Assembly: GCF_041248615.1 (NCBI RefSeq)
Contig: NZ_CP158426.1
DNA: 64,000 nucleotides
Source of the DNA: Escherichia coli
GTDB lineage: Bacteria > Pseudomonadota > Gammaproteobacteria > Enterobacterales > Enterobacteriaceae
Reading direction: 5' to 3' (one strand)
The notes beneath the pieces are model-generated. The model saw only the letters and a list, made by a program, of their open reading frames with translations. It was not told where the DNA came from and ran no database searches. The position numbers and the translations under genes were made by a program. The stretch's first letter is position 1, and each line of letters begins with the position of its first letter. This document shows positions 38,543 through 41,698 of this stretch, piece after piece.

Positions 38543-38759
38543 AGTAGTCTCCTGAGGTTTTATTAGAATCATTATGTTTGAGCGTAGCGTTGGTAACGCT
38601 ACCAGGCGCGTGAATGTTACCCCATTTTATGTATGGACATGTAGTGAAAACTACAACCTTGTCGTTCGCTTTGGCATCATTTTCATTATAAAGACGGAAT
38701 TTTGGGTGATGCTGCCAACTTACTGATTTAGTGTATGATGGTGTTTTTGAGGTGCTCCA

Positions 38760-39035
38760 GTGGCTTCTGTTTCTATCAGCTGTCCCTCCTGTTCAGCTAC
38801 TGACGGGGTGGTGCGTAACGGCAAAAGCACTGCCGGACATCAGCGCTATCTCTGCTCTCACTGCCGTAAAACATGGCAACTGCAGTTCACTTACACCGCT
38901 TCTCAACCCGGTACGCACCAGAAAATCATTGATATGGCCATGAATGGCGTTGGATGCCGGGCAACCGCCCGCATTATGGGCGTTGGCCTCAACACGATTT
39001 TCCGCCATTTAAAAAACTCAGGCCGCAGTCGGTAA
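38760..39035 (+). CDS. insA: IS1 InsA (transposition inhibitor / DNA-binding protein)
   Basis: 91-aa [27 protein letters not shown]...; A6C slippery site TTAAAAAAC at about 39009-39017 for the -1 frameshift that makes InsAB'. Confidence 0.95.
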
Positions 39036-39457
39036 CCTCGCGCATACAGCCGGGCAGTGACGTCATCGTCTGCGCGGAAATGGACGAACAGTGGGGATAC
39101 GTCGGGGCTAAATCGCGCCAGCGCTGGCTGTTTTACGCGTATGACAGGCTCCGGAAGACGGTTGTTGCGCACGTATTCGGTGAACGCACTATGGCGACGC
39201 TGGGGCGTCTTATGAGCCTGCTGTCACCCTTTGACGTGGTGATATGGATGACGGATGGCTGGCCGCTGTATGAATCCCGCCTGAAGGGAAAGCTGCACGT
39301 AATCAGCAAGCGATATACGCAGCGAATTGAGCGGCATAACCTGAATCTGAGGCAGCACCTGGCACGGCTGGGACGGAAGTCGCTGTCGTTCTCAAAATCG
39401 GTGGAGCTGCATGACAAAGTCATCGGGCATTATCTGAACATAAAACACTATCAATAA
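38954..39457 (+). CDS. insB: IS1 InsB frame (transposase C-terminal part)
   Basis: 167-aa ORF in the -1 frame relative to insA; canonical IS1 organisation. Confidence 0.93.
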
Positions 39458-39469
39458 GTTGGAGTCATT

Positions 39470-41698
39470 ACCGGCGCAGCGAATGATACTACCATTAAAG
39501 GCGGGCGCTTAATTATTGAAAAAGATGGGATTACCGTCTTTGCCGCTATCGAAAAGGGAGGATTACTGGAGGTTAAAGAGGGGGGATTAGCATTTGCGGT
39601 AGATCAGAAAGCCGGCGGTGCGATTAAAACAACCACCCGGGCCATGGAGGTATTCGGAACAAACCGTCTCGGTCAGTTCGATATCAAGGATGGTATTGCT
39701 AATAATATGCTGTTGGAAAACGGCGGAAGTTTGCGAGTTGAAGAAAATGACTTCGCTTATAATACCACTGTGGATAGTGGCGGCTTACTGGAGGTTATGG
39801 ATGGCGGGACTGCAACTGGCGTTGATAAAAAAGCAGGCGGAAAATTAATTGTCTCAACGAATGCGCTGGAAGTGAGTGGTACAAACAGTAAAGGCCAATT
39901 TAGTATAAAAGATGGTGTGTCCAAAAATTATGAACTGGATGATGGTTCCGGGCTCATTGTTATGGAGGACACGCAGGCCATTGATACTATCCTTGATGAG
40001 CATGCCACTATGCAATCGCTGGGAAAGGATACTGGTACGAGAGTGCAGGCAAATGCGGTGTATGATCTCGGTCGATCAGATCAGAATGGAAGTATCACGT
40101 ATTCCTCTAAAGCCATCTCTGAAAATATGGTTATCAACAATGGCCGCGCTAATGTCTGGGCTGGCACAATGGTTAACGTTTCAGTCAGAGGGAATGATGG
40201 CATTCTTGAGGTCATGAAGCCGCAAATAAATTATGCACCCGCTATGTTGGTGGGTAAGGTAGTGGTTTCTGAGGGCGCTTCTTTTAGAACGCATGGTGCC
40301 GTGGATACCAGCAAAGCGGATGTTTCGCTCGAAAATAGCGCATGGACCATCATTGCCGATATCACTACGACGAACCAAAACACTCGCCTCAACTTAGCCA
40401 ACCTTGCGATGTCTGGCGCAAATGTGATTATGATGGCTGAGCCAGTGACTCGTTCATCTGTGACGGCAAGTGCGGAAAATTTCACTACGTTGACCACCAA
40501 TACCCTATCGGGAAACGGCAATTTTTATATGCGTACTGATATGGCTAATCATCAGAGCGATCAGCTCAACGTGACCGGTCAGGCAACAGGTGATTTCAAA
40601 ATATTTGTGACGGACACAGGGGCCAGCCCGGCAGCAGGTGATAGCCTTACACTGGTAACAACGGGCGGCGGTGATGCTGCATTTACGTTGGGCAATGCCG
40701 GAGGCGTTGTTGATATCGGTACGTATGAATATACCTTGCTGGATAATGGCAACCATAGCTGGAGTCTGGCAGAGAATCGCGCGCAAATTACCCCTTCAAC
40801 CACTGATGTGCTGAACATGGCAGCAGCACAACCGCTGGTATTTGATGCAGAACTGTACACCGTGCGTGAGCGTCTTGGTAGCGTAAAAGGCGTTAGTTAC
40901 GATACGGCGATGTGGAGTTCGGCAATTAACACCCGCAACAACGTGACCACTGATGCGGGAGCTGGCTTTGAGCAAACATTGACGGGCCTGACGCTCGGTA
41001 TCGATAGCCGTTTCTCCCGTGAAGAAAGCAGCACAATTCGCGGCTTGTTCTTTGGTTACTCTCATTCTGATATTGGTTTTGATCGCGGCGGCAAAGGTAA
41101 TATCGATAGCTACACCCTGGGGGCTTATGCCGGTTGGGAGCATCAGAACGGTGCCTATGTTGATGGAGTGGTGAAAGTTGACCGTTTTGCCAACACCATC
41201 CATGGCAAGATGAGTAATGGAGCAACAGCGTTTGGCGATTACAATAGTAACGGCGCGGGTGCTCATGTCGAGAGCGGGTTCCGTTGGGTTGACGGATTGT
41301 GGAGTGTTAGACCCTATCTGGCCTTTACCGGCTTTACCACAGATGGTCAGGACTACACGTTATCAAATGGCATGCGCGCGGATGTGGGAAATACCCGCAT
41401 ATTACGCGCTGAAGCGGGAACGGCGGTAAGCTATCACATGGACCTGCAAAACGGTACGACGCTGGAACCCTGGCTGAAAGCCGCCGTGCGTCAGGAATAC
41501 GCCGATTCTAACCAGGTGAAAGTTAATGACGATGGCAAATTTAATAATGATGTGGCTGGAACCAGTGGCGTTTATCAGGCTGGGATAAGGTCATCGTTTA
41601 CCCCGACGTTAAGCGGTCATTTGTCTGTCAGCTATGGCAATGGCGCAGGGGTAGAATCACCGTGGAATACTCAGGCGGGTGTGGTCTGGTCGTTCTGA
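39470..41698 (+). pseudogene. yejO: 5'-truncated autotransporter (AIDA-I type) gene yejO, abutting IS1
   Basis: Reading frame is open from the IS1 right end for 742 codons with no start codon or signal peptide. Repetitive passenger sequence and C-terminal beta-barrel ending ...AGVVWSF. Confidence 0.85.

Follow-up and report, generated by a model that had tools for sequence, protein, structure and literature searches.

The narP-yejO region of the E. coli clinical isolate NRZ14408 (NZ_LT599825.1) carries an IS1 where the autotransporter gene yejO ought to begin. The question raised by this locus is how the element came to adjoin a gene without a beginning, and why the target-site duplication that normally marks an IS1 insertion is missing. 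The locus was examined within a window of 64 kb, which is the whole stretch of DNA analysed, and was then compared with other E. coli genomes.

The IS1 copy and the loss of the yejO 5' end

A preliminary description had placed a complete IS1 between the divergent genes narP and yejO, and this was borne out. The element, of IS1B type, lies at 38705..39472 on the plus strand and is exactly 768 bp long, matching the ~768 bp of the IS1 family. Its terminal inverted repeats of 23 bp, IRL (38705-38727, GGTGATGCTGCCAACTTACTGAT) and IRR (39450-39472, GGTAATGACTCCAACTTATTGAT), match at 18/23 positions. Both insA (38760-39035, 91 aa) and the insB frame (38954-39457, 167 aa) are open. The InsAB' transposase of IS1 is made by a -1 frameshift at an A6C motif, and this motif (TTAAAAAAC) is found at 39009-39017. 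The copy differs from K-12 IS1A by 8 substitutions in 768 nt, and PGAP/RefSeq calls it an IS1B-family transposase with programmed frameshift. The IS1 is complete and apparently functional.

The duplication generated by IS1 is 8 or 9 bp long (PMC12428005). In NRZ14408 the flanking 9-mers are unlike, GGAATTTTG on the left (38696-38704) and GGCGCAGCG on the right (39473-39481). Re-examination of the junctions and their vicinity, including shifted offsets, found no 8-9 bp direct repeat, in agreement with the preliminary description. The duplication is missing because of an adjacent loss of 523 bp. Its absence bears on the history of this IS1 copy, not on its identity as IS1.

On the left side of the element the locus is preserved. 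The narP CDS (37895..38542, minus strand, RefSeq WP_001113637.1) is intact and appears untouched by the deletion; the ORF list gives 37895..38572, with the stop shared with the annotated CDS. The narP-proximal half of the intergenic region (38543..38704, 162 bp of 319 bp) is kept and is 100% identical to positions 3244-3405 of the TUM1886 locus (L002). An AT-rich trough of the intergenic region starts in this segment, with a GC content of 36-41% in the covering 200-bp windows. The last 8 bp before the element (38697..38704) are GAATTTTG, the left copy of a target that flanks IS1 on both sides at the same base in seven other strains. The right-hand copy is absent in NRZ14408.

TUM1886 carries the closest intact yejO allele. 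An alignment with this allele gave junction flanks that are 100% identical and exactly 523 bp (L002 3406-3928) that are absent, contiguous with the right end of IS1. The missing segment comprises 157 bp upstream of yejO and codons 1-122, signal peptide included; the loss becomes 531 bp once the missing 8-bp target copy is counted. At the junction (39472..39473) the IS1 IRR is joined to yejO codon 123. These results support the earlier proposal that an adjacent deletion, rather than a simple insertion, shaped the locus.

What is left of yejO occupies 39473..41698 on the plus strand and consists of codons 123-863 and the stop (742 codons including the stop). It differs from TUM1886 yejO by 1 nt over 2,226 nt and contains no internal stop codons. 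The tRNA-Pro gene proL (41800..41876, minus strand, RefSeq annotation) marks the downstream boundary of the locus and is given for context only. As described previously, the frame is open to the right end of IS1 with neither start codon nor signal peptide, which was confirmed by inspecting the frame and the candidate starts. The frame extends 5 codons back into IS1, where it is closed by the in-frame insB stop, a TAA at 39455-39457. An InsB-YejO fusion protein was considered and rejected; the two frames coincide, but that stop codon separates them. The first in-frame ATG is at 39644, and no candidate in-frame start in the remnant provides a signal-like hydrophobic N-terminus. Intact YejO starts with MHQSGSVSLCRSAISVLVATALYSPIALA, a typical signal peptide that is part of the missing segment. 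The remnant is thus left without upstream region, ribosome-binding site, ATG or signal peptide.

Intact YejO has 863 aa and three Pfam domains, AIDA (PF16168, 184-315; passenger repeats), Pertactin (PF03212, 431-555) and Autotransporter (PF03797, 602-841; the C-terminal beta-barrel translocator). All three lie past residue 122 and are therefore kept in the remnant. RefSeq/PGAP already marks the NRZ14408 gene as a pseudogene, 'incomplete; missing N-terminus'. Judged by its sequence, the window holds a remnant of the YejO gene and not a functional member of the type Va (AIDA-I-like) autotransporters. Since the remnant lacks a usable start, yejO is best regarded as a recent null allele, and presumably no exported YejO can be made in NRZ14408. 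The remnant is undecayed, which argues that the event is recent. The right junction was found in 1/5,426 complete genomes, and its restriction to NRZ14408, together with the 1/2,226 nt difference, points to a recent, lineage-specific event.

The preliminary description stated that IS1 replaces the yejO promoter. The 157 bp upstream of the ATG are indeed gone. That a promoter went with them can only be inferred, because the yejO promoter is uncharacterized (PMC11677980) and a consensus scan of the intact intergenic region gave no sigma-70 match upstream of yejO. A scan for an outward sigma-70 promoter that could drive the remnant from the right end of IS1 gave just two sites, neither of this kind: one inside IRL (38712-38739) that points to insA, and a weak site past the first ATG, at 39678-39706. 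Visual inspection shows a hybrid TTGGAG-17-AATGAT across the junction, but only 7/12 of its positions match, which is under the scan threshold, and no read-through expression is claimed.

IS1 at the same base in other strains

The GAATTTTG target lies mid-intergenic, with the ATG of narP 162 bp away on one side and that of yejO 157 bp away on the other. In the set of 5,426 complete genomes, IS1 occupies this base in eleven further strains, in both orientations, giving twelve with NRZ14408. Simple insertions flanked by the 8-bp GAATTTTG duplication are found in seven of them, 2017.17.01CC, AVS0973, A23, Z1323CEC0018, EC-07, L9 and TUM12357. By virtue of these simple insertions, the left IS1 junction in NRZ14408 is an authentic primary insertion site. 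In the wider region, ~1 kb of intergenic DNA and yejO 5' sequence, IS1 was mapped at 10 distinct positions in 21 strains. The suggestion that this is a recurrent IS target therefore gained support, with twelve strains sharing the exact site. Three more IS1 copies in yejO are likewise without duplications and lie next to deletions of 161, 376 and 763 bp.

The twelve genomes represent at least four backgrounds and include three derived deletions or rearrangements. If IS1 were spread uniformly, roughly 0.01 copies would be expected per base position across the collection. No IHF-like site (WATCAANNNNTTR, ≤1 mismatch) was found in L002 3244-3700, and the hot spot shares no more than 13/23 positions with the IS1 ends, a weak similarity. 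We tentatively raise the idea, which we think has perhaps a minor chance of being right, that IS1 integrates at GAATTTTG in a truly site-specific manner, guided by the local structure of the DNA or by a nucleoid protein bound there. The site might then serve as a launch pad for repeated yejO deletions, with loss of the adhesin-like protein or an altered narP upstream region selected in some lineages. Nothing relevant to an IS1 hot spot at narP/yejO came up in a literature search. As an observation the hot spot is new but small; the deletion mechanism is already known. An IS1 hot spot defined to the exact base could be a convenient natural substrate for studies of IS1 target choice.

Two of the strains with IS1 at the hot spot, A134_1EC (NZ_CP182336.1) and EC06 (NZ_CM169496.1), have also lost neighbouring DNA. 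As in NRZ14408, the element sits at the identical base, the duplication is absent and the deletion runs rightward into the yejO 5' end. Unlike NRZ14408, these strains carry IS1A in the opposite orientation, so that the deletion abuts IRL. Their deletion ends at L002 3796 and spans 399 bp, made up of 391 bp and one 8-bp target copy, against 531 bp in NRZ14408, and PGAP still calls the shortened yejO ORF. Their precursor state is on record in Z1323CEC0018, EC-07, L9 and TUM12357. Z1323CEC0018 is the 'before' relative, with 0 differences from both strains in IS1 plus 800 nt of left flank, and 0 differences from A134_1EC in 1,500 nt of right flank.

Origin of the NRZ14408 allele

In the best model for NRZ14408, to which we assign a probability of about 0.7, IS1 first inserted at the hot spot and later promoted an adjacent deletion. 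In the first step, IS1 would have entered the 8-bp GAATTTTG target and duplicated it, as is now seen in other strains. In the second step, which draws on established IS1 biology, InsAB' would have carried out an intramolecular transposition in which the IRR end attacked a second target 531 bp away in yejO. The DNA between, namely the right-hand 8-bp target copy, the 157 bp upstream of yejO and codons 1-122, would have been lost. IS1 would have remained in place, abutting GGCGCAGCG without a target-site duplication. Adjacent deletion is among the usual explanations for IS copies that lack duplications (PMC11708052). A search of the 5,426 complete genomes found no same-lineage precursor of NRZ14408 with the hot-spot IS1 and an intact yejO; five of them have 100% identical flanks, and all five are without IS1.

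Besides the lack of a precursor, it counts against this model that recombination between two IS1 copies would leave the same final structure. Two direct copies, one at GAATTTTG and one at GGCGCAGCG, could have undergone RecA-dependent recombination that removed one copy together with the 523 bp. This predicts the observed hybrid flanks without duplication exactly. The region gathers IS1, as the 10 positions attest, and recombination between IS copies is a frequent cause of missing duplications (PMC11708052). However, none of the IS1-bearing alleles examined (0/21) has two IS1 copies in the region, and no double-IS1 intermediate was found in the 5,426 complete genomes. The 64-kb window contains neither a second IS1 nor any repeat of ≥100 bp, and IS1 copies are few in the NRZ14408 chromosome, where a query containing IS1 matched at 8 places. 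Recombination requires three events, adjacent deletion two. The new-junction 9-mer GGCGCAGCG is GC-rich, whereas the six duplications of simple IS1 insertions in this region are all AT-rich, making it atypical as a primary IS1 target. This composition also counts against the adjacent-deletion model, in which GGCGCAGCG is the second target. A deletion made by transposase and one made by IS1-IS1 recombination cannot be separated by sequence alone, but on the evidence above recombination seems unlikely.

A further consideration against the preferred order is that the reverse order leaves an identical structure. IS1 could have entered yejO first, at GGCGCAGCG, after which its IRL end targeted the hot spot and the DNA between was deleted. 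A preferred IS1 target could equally well serve in a second step. However, no other genome among the 5,426 has IS1 at or near L002 position 3929, and IS1 is unlikely to have chosen GGCGCAGCG as its primary target. Simple insertions are common at the hot spot, and A134_1EC and EC06 set a precedent for this site being used first. We therefore regard the reverse order as improbable.

Insertion and deletion could also have occurred together, either by capture of IS1 at a double-strand break or by attack of its two ends on sites 531 bp apart. Duplication-free insertions coupled to deletions or duplications have been proposed for other IS families (PMC11708052), and a one-step event would agree with the failure to find a precursor. 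It would, however, require the left end to match by chance the exact base at which IS1 is inserted in eleven other strains, by a mechanism that has not been demonstrated for IS1, and we consider it very improbable. Deletion first, with later insertion of IS1 into the scar, was rejected because that order would leave a duplication.

An assembly artefact, with two nearby IS1 copies collapsed or the region misjoined, is the least credible explanation: the NRZ14408 allele is known from one assembly and the record was deposited as linear, but the sequence is continuous, the reading frame of the remnant is kept, and A134_1EC and EC06, sequenced independently, have an allele of the same kind. Even a collapse would need a pair of IS1 copies separated by 523 bp, the rare two-copy configuration.

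Comparison with known systems

Taken alone, the NRZ14408 allele carries little weight; it accounts for the inability of this strain to produce the YejO autotransporter. Insertion followed by adjacent deletion, the model preferred here, makes the locus a clean natural example of the process, with a before and after pair documented at the same site in other strains. IS1-promoted adjacent deletions were classically described for gal and lac in the 1970s. NRZ14408 resembles these cases in that the IS stays, contiguous DNA is lost, no duplication is present, and the transposase genes and ends are intact (general account in PMC11708052). It differs in being a natural allele of a clinical isolate rather than a product of laboratory selection; no mechanistic difference is visible at the level of sequence. 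The IS150 adjacent deletions of the Lenski long-term lines also resemble the model for NRZ14408, with insertion, then adjacent deletion, and no duplications (PMC11708052). IS150 belongs to another IS family, and its steps were observed in a time series, whereas the order in NRZ14408 is drawn from other strains.

Across E. coli, yejO has been eroded by several independent routes: IS5 in K-12, insertion and deletion by IS1 in no fewer than 21 strains, and, in ~1,200 genomes, large internal truncations. A surface protein that is dispensable, perhaps counter-selected, would fit this pattern. The K-12 allele yejO::IS5K (b2190/insH8) resembles that of NRZ14408 in that the same gene is inactivated by an IS near its 5' end (PMC11005336, PMC11677980). 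The preliminary description, which suggested an IS5 at the narP-yejO junction of K-12, was right about the element but not about its position, since IS5 interrupts yejO itself, 67 bp past the ATG. This 1,195-bp element is a simple insertion that cost no sequence; its 4-bp duplication, TTAT, falls at codons 22-23. Relative to the IS1 site, the K-12 insertion is displaced 224 bp rightward, which puts it in the segment that NRZ14408 has lost, and K-12 keeps both yejO fragments (PMC11005336).

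IS1 element and the lost yejO segment

The window region was 100% identical to the chromosome of E. coli isolate NRZ14408 (NZ_LT599825.1), whose locus, L001, lies wholly inside the window with 0 mismatches (window = L001 + 35299). The order is ccmF-dsbE-ccmH, narP (- strand), IS1, the yejO remnant (the autotransporter gene without its 5' end), tRNA-Pro and yejM. IS1 occupies exactly 768 bp (38705-39472). Its 23-bp terminal inverted repeats (IRL and IRR) match at 18/23 positions, insA (91 aa) and the insB frame (167 aa) are open, and the frameshift motif TTAAAAAAC is at 39009-39017. 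The element differs from K-12 IS1A by 8 substitutions and appears to be fully functional. It is bordered by the 9-mers GGAATTTTG on the left and GGCGCAGCG on the right, and comparison of both junctions found no 8-9 bp repeat.

The closest intact allele is that of TUM1886 (L002), which matches the window at 100% across 405 nt on the left side of IS1 and 428 nt on its right side. Alignment to it defines the segment absent from the window as L002 3406-3928, or 523 bp. The 319-bp intergenic region is bounded by the narP start codon, whose end is L002 3243, and by the yejO ATG at 3563. The deletion therefore takes 157 bp on the yejO side of this region, together with the initial 366 bp of yejO, or codons 1-122. 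A typical signal peptide, MHQSGSVSLCRSAISVLVATALYSPIALA, is encoded in the lost codons. Intact YejO has 863 aa, and its AIDA repeats, pertactin domain and C-terminal autotransporter β-barrel all follow residue 122. Two terminator-like hairpins lie back to back on opposite strands at L002 3486-3522, 40-80 bp upstream of the intact ATG (2 observed vs 0.3 expected in shuffles); they fall within the deletion and are absent from the window.

The remnant frame is open from 39473 to a stop at 41698. Upstream of 39473 it extends five codons (VGVIT) into IS1 and then meets TAA at 39455-39457. This is the insB stop, and it parts insB and the remnant, which share one frame; read-through would yield a hypothetical InsB-YejO fusion. 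The earliest in-frame ATG is at 39644, and none of the candidate starts has a signal-like N-terminus. The preliminary description, a complete IS1 with differing 9-mers and no target duplication beside a yejO open to the IS1 right end but lacking a start and signal peptide, was correct in all details when the sequence was re-inspected. Since the ATG and signal peptide are absent, the window yejO is predicted to be a null allele from which no autotransporter could be exported. The remnant differs from TUM1886 yejO at 1 nt in 2,226 and has 0 internal stops, which argues for a recent lesion. A consensus scan identified a promoter-like site within IRL, directed at insA, and neither an outward promoter at IRR nor a consensus promoter in the intact narP-yejO intergenic region; loss of the yejO promoter with the 157 bp is therefore conjectural. 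Transcripts of the remnant, from any source, would encode a product without a signal peptide.

Two neighboring features were also observed. The ccmH-narP spacer (37861-37894), like that of TUM1886, is without ~176 bp of palindromic REP/BIME-like sequence carried by many other strains, e.g. 2017.17.01CC, A23 and Z1323CEC0018 (compare L003 3386-3595, the locus of another strain). yejA (53910-55724, - strand), which supplies the YejABEF importer of peptides and microcin C with its periplasmic binding protein, has an internal TAG at codon 491/604 (54252-54254; …RVWRAMP*PSSDLQ…). It is marked as a pseudogene in RefSeq and is a second inactivated gene, ~12 kb from the yejO lesion.

IS1 insertions between narP and yejO

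Both junctions were surveyed in 5,426 complete E. coli genomes. The right junction (IRR/GGCGCAGCG) occurs in 1/5,426, NRZ14408 itself. The left junction is common to other strains, namely 2017.17.01CC (IS1A) and AVS0973 (IS1B) in the window (+) orientation, and A23, Z1323CEC0018, EC-07, L9, TUM12357, A134_1EC, EC06 and C21 in the opposite orientation. Seven of these strains have simple insertions with the 8-bp duplication GAATTTTG at L002 3398-3405, all cases being mapped onto L002; IS1 duplications are 8 or 9 bp long (PMC12428005). This hot spot is uninterrupted in 5,366/5,426 genomes. The other two + copies differ from the window copy by 7 and 11 nt and from each other by 16, and the flanks of the three differ from TUM1886 by 0, 9 and 18 in 800 nt. 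Because the two orientations need separate events, and the + copies differ in IS1 and flanking haplotype, at least four independent IS1 insertions appear to have hit one base. As a rough guide, a uniform model with ~10 IS1 copies per 5-Mb genome would predict ~0.01 copies per base position in the whole collection. No IHF consensus was found around the hot spot, and the surrounding sequence has only weak similarity to IS1 ends.

Simple insertions with 9-bp duplications were mapped at L002 3409-3417 (600055), 3562-3570, across the yejO ATG (QDFD216), 3765-3773 (EC24), 3852-3860 (L2_E1649) and 4140-4148 (STEC409). IS1 without duplication adjoins deletions of 161 bp (CFSAN061762), 376 bp (MY203L1) and 763 bp (YPE10). 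These mapped positions come from strains other than 50EVAW, E143, Z226-5, PSS-12, CFS3292 and 2018-05-2CC, in which two-piece matches indicate further IS1 copies within 0.5 kb. GC content is 34-44% over L002 3300-4000 vs 50-56% within narP, and this AT-rich zone fits the preference of IS1 for AT-rich DNA. By an informal estimate enrichment of the whole 1-kb zone is modest; the strong signal is the exact-base hot spot. The QDFD216 element (L014 2706-3473) is IS1X2-type, 48 nt off the window IS1, with the duplication AATGCATCA; PGAP still calls a full-length yejO there, starting in the right-hand duplicate.

IS1 copies at narP-yejO are also involved in large rearrangements in UTAK-5 and C21. The UTAK-5 copy (L008 2848-3615) is at yejO without duplication, and its right side has prophage-like glycoside hydrolase 19 and Rz1-like lysis genes. 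C21 (L022 2541-3308) has the hot-spot left junction, an IS1 5 nt different, and prophage-like primase/Icd-like genes on the right. Joining of IS1 to foreign genes rather than yejO indicates a larger IS1-mediated rearrangement in C21.

Probable adjacent deletion and its alternatives

The hot-spot IS1A copies of Z1323CEC0018, EC-07 and TUM12357, all in - orientation, agree completely, as do their flanks; the L9 copy is 1 nt off. The duplication is present and yejO is full in 4/4. Against these insertions, A134_1EC and EC06 show 0 differences in IS1 and in the 800-nt left flank, and in A134_1EC the right flank also has 0 differences across 1,500 nt. The two strains are without 399 bp adjoining IS1, consisting of the right-hand GAATTTTG plus 391 bp. 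Together these sequenced relatives document a two-step history, with insertion first and adjacent deletion second, at the position that IS1 occupies in NRZ14408.

We place the probability of a similar two-step origin for the window allele at about 0.7. IS1 would have inserted at GAATTTTG, and intramolecular transposition would then have carried the IRR end to a site inside yejO; the intervening 531 bp would be lost while IS1 stayed, without duplication. This order of events in the NRZ14408 lineage, and dependence on transposase, are presumed. The new-junction 9-mer GGCGCAGCG is GC-rich, whereas primary IS1 targets at this locus are AT-rich, which speaks slightly against a standard second transposition. 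Recombination between two direct IS1 copies would leave the same end product, but it is an unlikely origin, as it requires one more event and two IS1 copies were present in 0/21 alleles examined. Also less likely than hot-spot insertion with IRR-end deletion are the same two IS1 steps in reverse order and a one-step, duplication-free IS1 insertion of a kind that has been proposed for other IS elements (PMC11708052). Assembly collapse in NRZ14408 is likewise less likely.

The early preference for IS1-mediated adjacent deletion over simple insertion was essentially right, given the 523 bp gone beside IS1 and the precedent at the same site. The NRZ14408 allele is an ordinary IS1-associated adjacent deletion giving a strain-specific yejO null allele, and public annotation already lists the window yejO as a pseudogene. 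The sole new element is the exact-base narP-yejO hot spot with repeated deletions starting from it.

Other yejO losses and K-12 IS5K

The 1.5-kb narP-yejO 5' region was found at ≥80% in one place in only 4,221/5,426 genomes, and in ~1,200/5,426 the match to intact yejO ends at query position 964 or 1034. These ends fit the large truncation in AVS0973, where only 924 bp of yejO (L004 5339-6262) remain before tRNA-Pro, and a report that ST131 has no yejO (PMC5654935). They are consistent with a widespread, IS-independent, large internal or 3' deletion. The IS1 events, this truncation and K-12 IS5K show several independent routes of yejO loss.

K-12 yejO is regarded as a pseudogene owing to IS5K (PMC11005336, PMC11677980). 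The preliminary description placed an IS5 at the K-12 narP-yejO junction; the element and gene were right and the site was not, since in MG1655 IS5K (insH8) interrupts yejO itself, 67 bp into the coding sequence, with the 4-bp duplication TTAT (L002 3626-3629). The accompanying idea of a recurrent IS target was supported by the repeated hits on one base and the nearby IS1 copies. The K-12 IS5K site is separated from the IS1 hot spot by 224 bp and belongs to the stretch that NRZ14408 has lost.
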